DNA from: Sphyrna mokarran
Lineage: Eukaryota
Direction of reading: 5' to 3'
Length of the DNA stretch: 64,000 nucleotides
Assembly: GCA_024679065.1 (NCBI GenBank)
Contig: JAGIQG010000007.1
Span: 76,632,001 to 76,696,000, forward strand
Below, one piece after another: positions 12,111 through 56,878 of the stretch; position 1 is the stretch's first letter; each line of letters opens with the position of its first letter. The notes beneath the pieces were generated by a model. It was not told where the DNA came from, ran no database searches, and was given only the letters and a program-made list of their open reading frames with translations. Made by a program: the position numbers and the translations under genes.

Positions 12111-13426
12111 TGTATAATCACAGAATCATTCTTTCTGGAGCATGCATTTGGTGATGTGAAATCCGAGATTGATCCATATATCAAGCGCAGTCCCTGCAAT
12201 TAAGCTCAGGGAAAAAGGGCAAAGAGAATTTTTACTTCTTGACTTCACAGCAGACACCACTCTCAAATTTGTTAGACACCTGTCTTTATTAAGATTGTCT
12301 CCAGCTGCAGCCTGTTGTCATGCCATCTAATATTAAGAAAAGCACTAAAAGGTTTCTCCTCCAGGTTGTGTTAACAGCCCTGAGGAAATGATAAAGTAAC
12401 GGGGAAGAGAGGCACTGGCTGCTGTAGCAGCTTCAACAGGCAAGTGCAATTAACATAATGATACATCATTTTACATGTAAAGGAAGCCCGAGTTTAGGCA
12501 TCAGTGTCAATAAAATGATTAAAGTCACAATTTCTTTCTGGTGGTGCTGAGACTAGCTGCCAAAGCCGCTGAATTGAATGCAGTATGGGTATAAATAGAG
12601 TCATAGCCCCAAACCTGCATGTTTTTCATTAAAACCAGAAGTGATGTTATCAGGGCACCTTGACACTATTTGGAACAAAATCAGTTATCAGGAAAAAAAA
12701 AGCAAGAAAAAATATTGTTGAAGGAGATTTGACAGAGTACGTCTCTGACACGGTACGAACTGTGACTATCAGAGATTGAGGGACCAAGTAAATATTTACT
12801 GTGGTAATATTCTGTAGCCTGTTTAAGATTCATTTTTTACGTGCATGGCAATTGTCACTTTTTCTGATACTTCATCACTATATCTATACTTCATATAAAT
12901 ACCAATGAATGAAATTAAGTGGCTATACCATGACAGAATTGATTCTTTGCTTTAGCGTCCACTTTAGTCATGTTATGGCGGATGTTGTATAAAGTCGATA
13001 AGTGTGAGGTTATCACTTCGGTAGCAAAAATAGGAAGACATTATTATTTGAATGAGTGTAAATTGAGAGGTGGATATTCAACAAGACTTTGGTGTCCTTG
13101 TGCATCAGTTACTGAGAGTAAGTAAGCAGGTGCAACATGCAGTAAAGAAGGCAAATGATTGGCCATTGTAGCAAGAGGATTGAGTATAGGAATAGGGATA
13201 TTATGCTGCAATTATATAAGGCATTGGTGAGGCCACACCTGGAGTATTGTGTGCAGTTTTGGTGTGCTTATCACACCAAAGATGTCCTTTCTTTAGAGGG
13301 AGTGCTGCAAAGGTTTGCTCTGCTGGTTCCGGGGATGATGTAGAGATGCCGGCATTGGACTGGGGTAAAGACACTAGGAAGTCTGACAACACCAGGTTTA
13401 AGTCCAACTGATTTATTTGATAGTAA

Positions 13427-13470
13427 ATTCACAAGCTTTCGAGGTGTTTCGACCCCTTCGTCAGGTGAAT
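13427..13470 (-). ncRNA. Minimal type-I hammerhead ribozyme motif (intact core)
   Basis: Minus strand: AUUCAC-CUGACGA-A-GGGGU-CGAAAC-ACCUC-GAAA-GC-UU-GUGAAU. This gives a 6-bp stem I, the conserved CUGANGA and GAAA boxes, stem II, and a palindromic AAGCUU minimal stem III. Confidence 0.75.
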
Positions 13471-13818
13471 GAGGTGTTCTAGTCTCAAACAGCACATATA
13501 ACAGCACAGACTGTTTACAGATTACTGATTAGAATGCGAATCTTTACATTAACCTGCTATTCAAGCCTTAAAGTGGTTAACAATGTGAGTGGAAGGTGCA
13601 CTGAGCACAGATTAAAGAGATGTGTGTTGTAGCCTCACTTACTGTGCTGTCTGGAGACAAATGCACATCTCTTTAACCTGTGCTCAGTGCTCCATCCTCT
13701 CACATTGTTGGCCACTTTAAGACTTGAATAGCAGGTTAGGTGTAAAGATTTGCATTCTAATCAGTAATCTGTAAACAGTCTGTGCTGTTATATGTGCTGT
13801 TTGAGACCAGAACACCTC

Positions 13819-13862
13819 ATTCATCTGATGAAGAGCTCGAAATACCTCGAAAGTTTGTGAGT
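13819..13862 (+). ncRNA. Minimal type-I hammerhead ribozyme motif
   Basis: AUUCAU-CUGAUGA-A-GAG..CUC-GAAA-GU-UU-GUGAGU; both boxes intact, stems weakened by G-U pairs. Confidence 0.65.
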
Positions 13863-14424
13863 TTACTATCAAATAAATCGGTTGGACTTAAACCTGGTGT
13901 TGTCAGACTTCCTACTGTGATTCCTGGGATGACAGGGCTATCATATGAGGAGAGAGTAAGTTGGGTAGTATCATATTCATTGGAGTTTAAAATAATGAAA
14001 GAGGAACTCATAGAAACTGATGAAATTCTAACAGGATTGGGCAGAGTAAATTCTGAAAGAATGTTCTTGATGGTGGAGGAGTCCAGAACTAGGGAATCAT
14101 AGTTTAAGGATAAGGGGTAGACATTTTAAGATTGAGATGAGGAGAAATGTCTACCCAAGAAGTATCAATCTGTGGAATTCATTACTATTGATAGTTCAGG
14201 CCAAAACATTGTGTGATTTCAAGAAGAAATTAGATATAGCTCTTGGGCCAAAGGGATCAAGGGATTTGGAGGGAAGGGGGCAAGCAAATATTGACTTTGA
14301 AGATCAAAATGAATGGTATGGCAAGCTCATAGAGCCAAATAGCCTAATCCAGCTTCTATTTTCTATGGTTCTGTGTATTTTATTAGAAAATATGGTAAAG
14401 TGTAGGGATCCCATCAAACATAAA

Positions 14425-15349: not shown

Positions 15350-16605
15350 CATAGAACATAGAACATAGAACATTACAGCACAGAACAGGCCCTTCGGCCT
15401 TCGATGTTGCGCCGACCAATATAAAAAGCAATGCCCCTCCAAACTAAACCATTCCTTTCTCTTCCATATACTTATCAACTAACCTCTTAAACGCCACCAA
15501 ACTTGGCACATCTACAACCGCTGCAGGCAGGGCATTCCACTCCCGAACCACCCTTTGGGTAAAGAACCTGCCTCTGATATCCGTCCTATAACTATCACCC
15601 CTTAATTTAAAGCTGTGTCCCCTCGTGCTAGCTTTCTCCATCCTAGGAAAAAGGCTATCACTGTCCACCCTATCTAAACCTCTAATCATCTTATATGTTT
15701 CGATTAGGTCCCCTCTTAGCCGCCTCCTTTCTAACGAAAACAACCTCAAATCCCTCAGCCTCTCCTCATAAGACCTGCCCTCCATACCAGGCAACATCCT
15801 GGTAAACCTCCTCTGTACCCTCTCCAATGCCTCCACATCTTTCTTATAATGTGGGGACCAGAACTGCACACAATACTCCAAGTGCGGCCGCACTAGAGTT
15901 TTGTACAGTTGCAACATGACGTTGCGGCTCCGAAATTCAATCCCTCTACCAATAAAAGCCAAGACTCCATATGCCTTCCTAACAACCTTCTCGACCTGAC
16001 TGCCTACTTTCAGGGATCTATGCACATACACACCAAGATCCCTCTGTTCATCTAGACTACTAAGAATCCTACCATTTGCCCTATACTCTACACATTTATT
16101 ATTTCTGCCATAGTGCATTACCTCACACTTTTCCACATTAAACTCCATTTGCCACCTCTCGGCCCAGCTCTGCAACTTGTCCAAGTCCCTCTGCAAACTA
16201 TAACACCCCTCTTCACTATCTACCACTCCACCGACTTTAGTGTCATCTGCAAATTTACTAATCCATCCTTCAATACCCTCATCCAGATCATTTATAAAAA
16301 TTACAAACAGCAGGGGCCCCAAAACAGACCCCTGAGGTACACCACTTGTCACCGAACTCCACGATGAATATCTCCCATCAACCACCACCCTCTGTCTTCT
16401 ATCTGCTAGCCAATTCCTAATCCAATTAGCTAAATCACCCTCTATCCTATACATCTGCATTTTCTGCAGAAGTCTTCCATGGGCCACCTTATCAAACGCC
16501 TTACTAAAGTCCATATATACCACATCAACCGCCTTACCCCCATCCACCTCCTTAGTCACTTTTTCAAAAAACTCAATGAGGTTAGTAAGGCACGACCTAC
16601 CCTTC
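15350..16605 (-). mobile_element. Young 5'-truncated CR1/HER1-like LINE
   Basis: Uninterrupted ORF2 fragment, short 3' UTR and (TTCTATG)n tail (catagaa x3 at 15350-15372 on +); truncated just 5' of GRSCLTNLIEFF. Confidence 0.95.
15444..16559 (-). CDS. CR1 ORF2 reverse transcriptase, C-terminal portion (partial; no true start)
   Basis: Motifs YMDFSKAFDKV, SGVPQGSVLGPLLF, FADD (catalytic), LVRPHLEYCVQFWSP and LERRRLRGDLIE, with no stops over 371 codons. Confidence 0.9.
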   Translation of the reverse strand: MTKEVDGGKAVDVVYMDFSKAFDKVAHGRLLQKMQMYRIEGDLANWIRNWLADRRQRVVVDGRYSSWSSVTSGVPQGSVLGPLLFVIFINDLDEGIEGWISKFADDTKVGGVVDSEEGCYSLQRDLDKLQSWAERWQMEFNVEKCEVMHYGRNNKCVEYRANGRILSSLDEQRDLGVYVHRSLKVGSQVEKVVRKAYGVLAFIGRGIEFRSRNVMLQLYKTLVRPHLEYCVQFWSPHYKKDVEALERVQRRFTRMLPGMEGRSYEERLRDLRLFSLERRRLRGDLIETYKMIRGLDRVDSDSLFPRMEKASTRGHSFKLRGDSYRTDIRGRFFTQRVVREWNALPAAVVDVPSLVAFKRLVDKYMEEKGMV

Positions 16606-17049
16606 TTCTACATTGAACAAATACTATTGGAAGCATTGCACTGGTTGAGCCTTACCATGCCTCATTGTTCTGTTCTCACATGCAGTGCTGTAGAATTGTG
16701 GAATGTGAAACACAGCTTCAGATACTCCCATGATGAATCCTGTTATCTGGGCAAATGTCTCCTCCCTGCAATGGAGCTGGCCAGGTCAGGAATGCAGGTT
16801 ATGAGTTCATCACCCCCATTCTTATCTTGTGCAGCACAAATTGGGGGCATCGAGAATTAAGTCAAGCCCACCGTTTTGAAATGTGGGATCATGTTACACA
16901 GAAAGTTACAGTGAAAATATGTAAGAAGTATCACTTGTACTGACCAACTTAACACCACCACTCACTTTCATTTGGCTTTGGATGTATTGCAGTGCCCTAA
17001 TCAAAGTGTTCTCAAATTTTAGGACTGATATTCTTTCCATCGTAAGAAA

Positions 17050-27304: not shown

Positions 27305-27400
27305 CCCACTTACCTGACAAAGGAACAGCGCTCTGAAAGTTCGTGGCGTTTGCTACCAAATAAACCTGTTGGACTTTAACCTGGTGTTCTGAGACTTCTT
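27305..27400 (+). mobile_element. Penelope pLTR fragment with mutated hammerhead
   Basis: tac-ctgacaa-aggaacagcgctct-gaaa-gt-tc-gtg then taccaaataaacctgttggactttaacctggtgtt..gagacttctt; the CUGANGA box is mutated to CUGACAA. Confidence 0.75.
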
Positions 27401-39964: not shown

Positions 39965-41400
39965 CAACTCTGCAGAGACAGCAATCAGGGGAATTGGGAG
40001 AATTCTGCAGAGGTAGTGATCAGGGGAGTGGGAGGAACTCGGCAAGGGCGGTGATGGGGGGAGTAGGGGGATCTCTGCAGGGATGGCAAACAGGTGAATG
40101 GGGGAGATCTGCAGGGCTGGTGATCGGGGGAGTGGTGGAACTCTGTAGGGGCAGTGCCCGGGGGAATAGGGAAAGTCTGCAAGAGCGGTGATTGGGGGAG
40201 TGGGGAGATCTCTGCAGGGGTGGTGATTGGGGAGTGGGGGGACCTCTGCATGGCTGGCGATCGGAGGAATGGGGGAATCTCTGCGGGGGTGGAGTGGGAT
40301 GGTGTGGGGTGGAGCGGTGACCAGGGAGTGAGGGGAATTTTGCAGGAGGAGCAGCTGGTAGAATGGAGAGATCTGTGCAGGGGTAGTGATTGGGAGAGTG
40401 GGGGAATCTCTGCAGGGGGGAGGTCGGGGGAGTGAGGAGAACTCTGCAGAGGAGTGACCACGGGAGTGGGGAGATCTCTGCAGGGATGGTGATTGGGGGA
40501 TCTCTGCATGAGTGATGATTGGAGGAATGGGGGGGAATCTCAGCGCGGCAATCGGGAGACTAGGGGAACTCTGCAGAGGGGTGACTGGCGGAATGGGGTA
40601 GATTTCTGCAGAGACGGTGATCAGGGGAATGGGGGTATCTCTGCAGAAGCAACAATTAAGGGAGTGGGAGGGTATCTCTGCAGAAGCAACAATTAAGGGA
40701 GTGGGGGGGTATCTCTGCAGAGGCAGCGATTAGGGGAGTGGGGGATATCTCTGCAGAGGCAGCGATTAGGGGAGTGGGGGCGTATCTCTGCAGAGGTGGC
40801 GATCAGGAGATGAGGGGAACTCTGCAGGGGAGTGGGGGGGTATCTCTGCGGGGGCAATGATCGCGAGAGTCATGAGATCTATGTGGGGGGGGGCAATTAG
40901 GGGAGTGGGGGGATTTCTGCTGGGGGGGCAATTGGGGGAGTGAGAGGATCTGTGCAGGAGTGATGATCTGGGGAGTGGGGGGATCTCTGCTGGGGGGGCA
41001 ATTGGGGGAGTGGAGGACCTCTGCTGGGGGGGTGATTGGGGGAGTGAGGGATCCCTACAGGAGTGACAATCTGGGGAGTGGGGGGATCTCTGCGGGGGGT
41101 GGGGGGGCATTAGGGCAGTGGGGGGATCTCTGCAGGGATGGCGATTGGAGGAGTGGGGGGATCTTTATGAGGATGGCAATTGGGGAAGTGGGGCTTTCTG
41201 CAGGGTGGCCACTGGGTGAATGGGAGGATGTCTGCAGCGGTGGCAATTGGGGGAGTGGGGGATCTCTGTGGGGTGGCGATTGAGGGAGGGAGGATCTCTG
41301 CGGGGGTGAGAATTGGGGGAGTGGGAGATTTCTCCGGGGGTGCAACTGGGGGAGTAGAGGAGCTCTGCAGGGGTACGATTAGTAGTGAGCGATCTCTGAA
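39965..41400 (+). repeat. G-rich minisatellite, ~36-37-bp unit (approx. ggggagtgggggga(t)atctctgcagaggcagcgatta)
   Basis: Recurrent (ga)tctctgcag and ggggagtggg motifs; near-identical consecutive units at 40641-40790. Confidence 0.9.
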
Positions 41401-41781
41401 GAGCTTCAAGGGATGGCAATACAGCATAGGGAGCGGTCAGCCATGGGTCCTGATGTCTGTGGAGATAGTGGGGTGATGATACGGGATCTCTCATTGCCTG
41501 GGAGATCAGGGCACTTATACAATGGTACCCCTGGAGCTCAGCAGCTGGCTTCACCAGCAAGGTTTGGCTCCATCATGCTCCTATTGGTGAGAATTGTATC
41601 TGGGCTTTTTCTTAACTAAGTGTTGTAAGATTGCAACTGGCAGCTTGCCCAAAAAATTGACACAATTCTCTCCCATTTTCATGCTTATTCAGCATTTTGA
41701 ATTTTTCTCATAAAATTCCTCGCGAAGTGTCATCCAAAGAACAAATTACTTTTCACCATTCCTTCGTCTAATTGCATTCGT

Positions 41782-42240
41782 AGAATCATAGAATCCCTGA
41801 ATTGCAGAAGGAGGCCTTTTGGCCCATTGAGACTGTGGTGACAACAATCCCATCCAGAGCCTATCCCCATGTATTTACCCTGATAAGCCCCTGACAATAA
41901 GGGACAATCCACCTAGTGTGCACATGTTAGGAGTAAGAAGTCCCTCAACACCAGATTAAAGTCCAACAGCCTCAAGCTCCTCACCTGATGAAGGAGACTC
42001 CAAAAGCTAGTGTTGCCAAATAAACCTGTTGGGCTTTAACCTGATGTTGTGAGACTTCTTACAGTGCTTACCCCAGTCCAATGCCAGCATCTCCACATTG
42101 GACTGTGAAAGGAAGCTGGAGCATCCAGCAGGAACCCACACAGACATGGGGAGAATGTGCAAGTTCCACATAAACAGTCACCTGAAGCCAGAATTGAACC
42201 CAGGTCTCTGGCGCTGTAAGGCAGCAGTGCTAACCATTAT
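41782..42240 (-). mobile_element. HE1-like SINE split by a mini Penelope fold-back
   Basis: Tail agaatcatagaatccc at 41782; head gcagcagtgctaacca at ~42221-42236. Confidence 0.85.
41933..42098 (+). mobile_element. Mini Penelope-derived fold-back with one hammerhead motif (GAAA mutated to AAAA)
   Basis: 41933-41969 is the inverted copy of 42026-42062; between them lies cac-ctgatga-a-ggag-a-ctcc-aaaa-gc-ta-gtg. The element ends ccccagtccaatgccagcatctccacat. Confidence 0.8.
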
Positions 42241-56433: not shown

Positions 56434-56878
56434 AGGGTAAACGTTCTCCAAGGAGGCCTTCAAGACACATGATGACACAGAATCGCCAAGCAGAAACTGA
56501 TAACCAACCTCCGCATTCATGAGGACGACCTCAATAGGGATCTCAGATTCATGTCACACTACAGGTAAACCCCACCATTTGTCCCAGGCTTGCAAAATCC
56601 TAATAACTGTCCTGGATTGAGACAATTCACGCCTCTTTACCCTGAGATTATCCTTCTTTCCACTCATACTATCTGTACTTGAAAAGACCTGACTCACATT
56701 CCAATCATTATCTTGCAATTGTGTCTCTGTTTATATATCGTGAACCCACTTCTCCACCCACCTGATGAAGGACCCGTGCTCTGAAAGCTCGTGATTTCAA
56801 ATAAACTTGTTGGACTTTAACCTGGTGTGAGACTTCTTACTGTGACCACTTCAGTCCAACGCAGGCTTCTCCACTTCA
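56434..56878 (+). mobile_element. Penelope-like element 3' end: GIY-YIG endonuclease C-terminus plus pLTR with hammerhead
   Basis: 56443-56568 reads VLQGGLQDT**HRIAKQKLITNLRIHEDDLNRDLRFMSHYR* (cf. E..LI..F...GLN of PLE GIY-YIG). The pLTR follows, with an aataaa signal. Confidence 0.8.
56759..56793 (+). ncRNA. Minimal type-I hammerhead ribozyme motif (intact core)
   Basis: CAC-CUGAUGA-A-GGA-cccgugc-UCU-GAAA-GC-UC-GUG. Confidence 0.7.

Follow-up and report, generated by a model that had tools for sequence, protein, structure and literature searches.

EN+ Penelope-like elements (PLEs), which like their clades are used here as defined in the Introduction of PMC8557442, have been described as leaving a distinctive insertion: the scheme in the legend to Fig. 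2 of that paper has an inverted 5'-truncated copy, a one-sided tail of 30-40 nt and a TSD, and an inverted-pLTR insertion of an EN+ PLE, Pen2a_Av, is described from Adineta vaga in PMC3846280. The mechanism that produces the inverted copy together with its one-sided tail is given as undefined in the text of PMC8557442. Pairs of minimal type-I hammerhead ribozymes (min-HHRs) lying 100-700 bp apart on opposite strands are reported from metazoan PLEs in PMC4209133, where in vitro assays gave no activity for monomers and weak activity for dimers. The protein of the anole element Poseidon cuts and extends both strands in vitro, initiates at two positions on either side of the tail and is a predicted dimer; its start site was equal between strands, no homology between the RNA start and the cut DNA was seen, ribozyme cleavage was dispensable, and inverted insertions are not treated in that study (PMC11167929).

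The locus described here comes from Sphyrna mokarran (GCA_024679065.1) and lies in a window of 64,000 nt, the whole stretch of DNA that was analysed (JAGIQG010000007.1:76,632,001-76,696,000, forward strand), within which all positions of the locus are counted. Very probably a high-copy Penelope-like retrotransposon inserted here once, leaving two 5'-truncated 3' ends placed head to head; the pair was likely twin-primed on one RNA and is likely inert now. In common with the EN+ PLE insertions outlined in PMC8557442 and PMC3846280, it has adjacent inverted truncated copies, a one-sided tail of 30-40 nt, a TSD and a hammerhead in the pLTR region. It differs from them in that both copies are reduced to the 3'-UTR only, so that no ORF is left in the insert, and TSDs are of 12-15 bp here against 8-10 bp in Adineta (PMC3846280). 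The layout itself is already published, and what is added here are family-wide counts. The locus alone is ordinary transposon debris, and it is as a set that these insertions bear on how Penelope-like elements, which are relatives of telomerase, make an inverted copy and a tail.

Structure of the insertion

The insert occupies positions 13339-13917 (about 580 nt), bounded in this way because the ORF2 frame of the interrupted LINE is continuous across both flanks. With a frame from the same window (15447-16607, minus strand) as tblastn query, ORF2 amino acids 215-275 match 13154-13336 on the left (56%, E 3e-20) and amino acids 267-340 match 13904-14125 on the right (E 5e-12). The host LINE, which we take to be CR1-like, runs on the plus strand through 12976-13338 (C-terminal part of ORF2, located by tblastn with its start from a DNA match) and 13918-14361 (end of ORF2 and 3' part, located by tblastn with a DNA match to another copy reaching 14361). 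The query frame itself is a LINE ORF2 piece of 387 uninterrupted amino acids with an RVT_1 match (E 1e-25), inverted relative to the host LINE. Within the host LINE, the fold-back with two oppositely oriented arms that the initial annotation had claimed is borne out by an inverted repeat, 13371-13624 against 13664-13918, of 254 aligned nt at 92% identity, a divergence of about 8% that is like that at other loci (mean identity 92%). The 15-bp TSD with two mismatches that had been claimed to flank it is likewise present, at 13324-13338 and 13918-13932 (plus strand), and the last four nucleotides of its left copy, ATGA, also match the element end and so represent microhomology.

The arms are thus inverted as claimed, but they are neither symmetric nor set apart by a separate spacer. 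On a ruler that places the ATG of the element ORF at 0, the tailed arm (13339-13630, minus strand) covers about -295 to 0 and includes a 32-nt tail (13339-13370, minus strand) that is found on this left arm only and that in tandem copies runs into the ORF start codon. The tail-less arm (13631-13917, plus strand) covers about -320 to -33, and the next two nucleotides (TG) are common to the element and the TSD. The 39 nt between the paired regions (13625-13663), formerly taken as spacer, are element sequence with the head-to-head junction within them at 13630/13631, and this unpaired loop consists mostly of the extra 5' sequence carried by the tail-less arm. Shorter pieces of the same or a related element, with matches on both strands, lie elsewhere in the window at 27335-27398, 41932-42097 and 56783-56874 and are probably small fold-backs. 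Positions 40001-42000 are unlike the remaining window in their GC content of 0.56 and strong G skew of 0.43.

The parent element

Copies retrieved with the insert centre as query extend upstream into the end of an ORF, and by the definitions in PMC8557442 their sequence points to a parent that would be an EN+ Penelope-like element of about 3 kb, of Neptune/Nematis type. A near-full copy (L180) measures 2,999 nt from ATG to tail end, with an upstream partial copy present, and its frames match RVT_1 (E 3.3e-5), while a frame of a second copy (L048) matches GIY-YIG (E 0.0021; Atlas 0.96); both Pfam matches score under the gathering cut-off, which weighs against this identity. The order in the parent ORF, in copies that are broken, is RT and then a C-terminal GIY-YIG endonuclease, and VYLIxC..C..AWYIG followed by His residues can be read in it by eye. 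A PDB search with the RT piece returned nothing relevant. Upstream of EN the ORF has a Cys-rich linker, C-x4-C-x2-C, which is described as common to Neptune and Nematis (PMC8557442) and so cannot separate the two. The tail followed by ATG has 774 matches in a pattern search, with continuation into the ORF in many of 20 loci read, and partial tandems form a pLTR whose 3' end reaches the ORF start, which together with the inverted 5'-truncated copy, one-sided tail and TSD is what is expected of an EN+ PLE. The family is abundant, an exact 31-mer of the arm having at least 3,178 matches in the genome and its reversed control none. Contigs of four other organisms hold relatives of the family with loose ends at the tail boundary; none of them spans the locus, and they have no bearing on its expression, editing or circRNA.

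As far as Poseidon PAc of Anolis carolinensis is described in PMC11167929, it resembles this family in having a tail delimited by two fixed 3' ends, two usable target strands and a hammerhead near the pLTR-ORF junction. The start sites of PAc are placed more than 100 nt inside the ORF, and its hammerhead overlaps the start codon, whereas the ends of the family studied here lie at about 0 and -35 and its predicted cut at -96 (PMC11167929 for PAc). The Cys-rich linker before EN (Neptune/Nematis type) is a further difference from PAc. At one locus of the family (L178), ORF starts at 1510 and 7325, 5.8 kb apart, fall within a repeat of about 2.7 kb at 91% identity, which judged by its sequence would be either a tandem or a segmental duplicate.

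Frequency of the head-to-head layout

An initial genome search used the junction as query, which enriches similar junctions, and counts were therefore not drawn from it. They come instead from a junction-blind sample, the first 100 matches listed on one contig (C1), which required one exact 31-mer and gave 95 loci. Direct head-to-head pairs make up 62 of the 95, a lower bound given that the partner search spanned about 1.15 kb upstream, that one locus (L118) was fetched with 366 nt upstream and that the partner at another (L141) is 2.2 kb away; 5 more loci are pairs spaced by 200-430 nt and 28 are other. The head-to-head pair is the commonest footprint of this Penelope family among the sampled copies. 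These pairs have a median length of 216 bp, with 8 of 62 longer than the window insert, and their junctions are scattered, with both inner ends coinciding to within 3 nt in 4 of 1,653 pairwise comparisons of junctions. TSDs, mostly of 12-14 bp, were found at 56 of 69 loci (67 pairs, the window locus and a locus termed L002) against 0 of 84 swapped flanks. Two loci (L066:1551-1842 and L134:976-1251) have the 3' end of another LINE, with ATAGAAC repeats, between their arms, either as a later insertion or through junction capture by template switching. The 211 nt between the arms at L085:1231-1441 are unique among the fetched loci, lie inside one 12-bp TSD and are possibly captured host sequence.

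The initial annotation had offered a retrozyme-like unit as an alternative to a truncated Penelope insertion, and proposed that a junction shared between loci would imply mobilisation as a unit. Such a unit, non-autonomous and transcribed and re-inserted whole, has some precedent, as PLEs can carry unrelated sequence between pLTRs in trans according to PMC3846280 and animal retrozymes are proposed as PLE derivatives in bioRxiv 10.64898/2026.07.22.740005. A genome-wide search with the window junction pattern, allowing up to two mismatches, did return one other locus beside the window locus, L002, with different flanks and its own 14-bp TSD. However, stem II is 13 nt long and position -41 is T in both L002 arms, as against 17 nt and C in both window arms, which argues for another template RNA and a separate origin, and rules out the common junction as proof of unit mobilisation. 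Had one locus descended from the other, its two arms would have had to switch in concert to a different variant that already exists, and the arm-specific substitutions common to the two are confined to junction-adjacent bases. Against separate origin, the tail-less arms of the window locus and L002 are 95.7% alike, compared with within-locus values of 92.5% and 94.0%; each of these arms has only five private changes from the ruler, so that similarity to the family average can account for this identity. Arms at two loci of the junction-biased sample (L003 and L007) begin at the same A-run as the window junction, which makes a recurrent junction plausible.

Retrozymes as presented in bioRxiv 10.64898/2026.07.22.740005 are similarly non-coding, with a type-I hammerhead and kinship to PLE pLTRs; in contrast to the head-to-head window insert, which has no amplified unit, they are head-to-tail tandems in which every unit has its hammerhead on one strand. 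At the window locus the arm is neither arrayed in tandem nor directly repeated, and the two junction matches in the genome, built from different template variants, do not amount to a family of the unit's own, with junctions elsewhere scattered. Judged on these sequence comparisons, transcription and re-insertion of the fold-back as a whole appears largely refuted, and we regard it as very unlikely. It is the truncated Penelope insertion that stands, with its parent element and the same layout in 62 of 95 loci.

Formation of the pairs

Twin priming on one RNA is probably the route by which the window insertion formed. In L1 twin priming, the two nicked strands each serve as primer on the element RNA, giving an inversion inside one TSD; the two parts are non-overlapping and the second site is variable. 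The family described here differs in that its arms cover the same sequence and its second site is fixed. Literature searches, excluding older subscription papers, turned up none in which twin priming is applied to Penelope elements. In the proposed sequence of events, the element protein, probably as a dimer, would nick both target strands 12-14 bp apart. Reverse transcription from one nicked 3' end would begin at the ORF start codon and so give the tail, and the other end would prime at a site about 35 nt further upstream in the same RNA molecule. The two cDNAs would each terminate prematurely, at positions unrelated to one another, before being joined at their inner ends.

The outer ends of the pairs follow a simple rule. 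Among 67 pairs, 63 have one tailed end (at about 0) and one short end (at about -35), some 35 nt apart, and the exceptions to be set against the rule are one pair scored with two short ends (L136) and three that are unclassifiable. None of the 64 classifiable pairs has two tails (excess of one-tail pairs, binomial against 0.5, p 7e-18), so that exactly one arm is tailed in 63 of 64, compared with a tail that is 'optional' or 'often' one-sided where the published text describes it. The inner ends are close to symmetric: among 54 non-palindromic direct pairs, 18 have a tail-less arm that extends 20 nt or more beyond its partner in the 5' direction and 12 have a tailed arm that does so, and where both arms span the search anchor (n=43, difference of at least 8 nt) the counts are 18 and 15. 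Stem-II edit distance is 1.7 within and 4.5 between loci (0 of 10,000 permutations; 23 loci, including the window locus and L002), and a hypervariable stem II common to partner arms points to one template or one source locus. Microhomology at the outer ends is 1.6 and 1.5 nt against 0.46 and 0.38 in the control (42 clean-TSD loci), a one-sided control for which a fair null would be about twice as high, at about 0.8-0.9. Taken together, the end rule, the inner ends, the common template and the microhomology fit RNA priming of both nicked strands. Several points weigh against twin priming: the evidence comes from dead copies, strand displacement or sequential use would be required for two primers to share one RNA, and common stem-II variants could also stem from two RNAs of one source locus. 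The slight microhomology seen here also contrasts with the anole study, which as reported in PMC11167929 found neither strand bias in the start site nor start homology.

The same insertion could instead result from snap-back self-priming, on cDNA or antisense RNA, into a hairpin that EN resolves with a stagger of about 35 nt, which we consider improbable, and at the most generous still unlikely. Palindromes at Adineta junctions led to a proposal that an antisense template primes itself (PMC3846280), the tail has been ascribed to EN resolution of an intermediate in PMC8557442, and arms of one template would follow directly. A palindromic centre is present in 4 of 58 direct tail/short pairs, two of them at the ribozyme AAGCTT, but most junctions are non-palindromic. 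Snap-back of one polarity would moreover put the loop always on the same arm, in contrast to the 18 tail-less and 12 tailed arms that extend further. A folded-back cDNA leaves the loop on the arm made first, and since a tail-less first arm cannot supply the tail, the window insertion is of a kind that snap-back has no simple way to produce.

For the family as a whole, we think it somewhat probable that head-to-head pairs are the default product of twin priming, recording cuts by a dimer 12-14 bp apart and two cDNAs made on one RNA from fixed sites separated by 35 nt, in every case one for each strand. If true, dimer action and two-site priming would account jointly for the inverted copy and for the one-sided tail, which are unexplained according to PMC8557442. 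Predictions for the in vitro Poseidon system also follow from the one-tail rule, the symmetry of the inner ends and the common template.

Hammerhead motifs and folding of the insert

The two hammerhead motifs of the initial annotation are present by sequence pattern at 13427-13470 (minus strand) and 13819-13862 (plus strand), as is AATAAA in both arms, at 13412-13417 (minus strand, 16 nt downstream of the predicted cut) and 13872-13877 (plus strand), a candidate signal in each case. Both motifs consist of CUGANGA, one extra A, stem II, GAAA and GYUU, with a stem I of 6 bp. An Rfam search at E<=10 returned no hammerhead model, only hairpin-type miRNA matches far under gathering scores, and the hammerhead call rests on the pattern together with the published description of min-HHRs. 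In line with that description (PMC4209133, as far as its motif is detailed), they have an extra nucleotide between 9 and 10.1, a G10.1-C11.1 pair, a palindromic 15.2-16.2 without loop 3 and a highly variable stem II; the differences lie in a stem II of 4-5 bp and the 6-bp stem I here, in a motif known from sequence.

The left motif looks intact and has the core, stems I and II and palindromic 15.2-16.2 of a minimal type-I hammerhead, and its cleavage is predicted to fall between 13433 and 13432. Folded in isolation, the motif has stems I and II in its MFE structure (-11.4 kcal/mol, z -1.1), and the AGCU palindrome is kept, with a predicted self-dimer of -6.5 kcal/mol. In the right motif, which by these features is no longer a minimal type-I hammerhead, the AGCU palindrome has been lost through C>T at 13854 (self-dimer -0.6 kcal/mol), G>C at 13836 gives a C-C mismatch that breaks stem II, and no hammerhead appears in the MFE fold. 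The claim of two hammerheads therefore holds for the motifs and fails for the right ribozyme, which has decayed.

When the whole insert is folded, the cores are predicted to be 94% (plus strand) and 86% (minus strand) paired with the opposite arm, in line with the annotation's long hairpin able to mask the ribozymes; a read-through transcript is predicted to form a hairpin of about 255 bp that would mask both motifs. Thousands of such hairpins could, to judge from sequence, be a source of dsRNA in the Sphyrna mokarran genome. The long predicted hairpin and the left ribozyme that still looks intact would suit an ordinary insertion later co-opted by a host gene as a cleavage/polyadenylation or dsRNA cassette. 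We nevertheless regard such co-option as extremely unlikely: the arms have diverged by as much as at other loci, the right ribozyme has decayed, both cores are predicted to be locked in the hairpin, and min-HHRs showed the weak in vitro behaviour noted above for PMC4209133. No host exon was recognised among the 84 frames scanned with Pfam, out of 149 of at least 75 aa (the other 65 and all shorter frames lay outside the scan), the one match being the LINE RT, which leaves the host-intron setting named in the initial annotation a supposition. The orientation-independent cleavage/polyadenylation cassette that had been suggested is accordingly not borne out, with no host gene located, and the ribozyme motifs and AATAAA would rather be passengers of the element 3' end.

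A pile-up of 5' ends at the ribozyme cut (-96), considered as a sign of in vivo cleavage, was rejected, with counts of 5 and 8 ends in the bins around that position. In the 95 sampled loci the 5' ends peak at -145 to -126 on the ruler, the 5' edge of the hammerhead, which may reflect stalling of the RT or an edge of the alignment at which subfamilies diverge. There was no support for a special fold at the two element end sites (z -0.8). A strict count of intact ribozymes (38 of 161) misses 3-bp stem-II variants and is left out of our results. Stem II is hypervariable in the 161 hammerhead copies of the fetched loci, with apparent compensatory changes, judged by eye, in variants such as GAGG/CCTC, GGGG/CCCC, GGC/GCC and GGCAC/GTGTC. 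At two loci (L063 and L086) the centre of the hairpin is a near-perfect palindrome centred on the stem III AAGCTT, beside the predicted cut.
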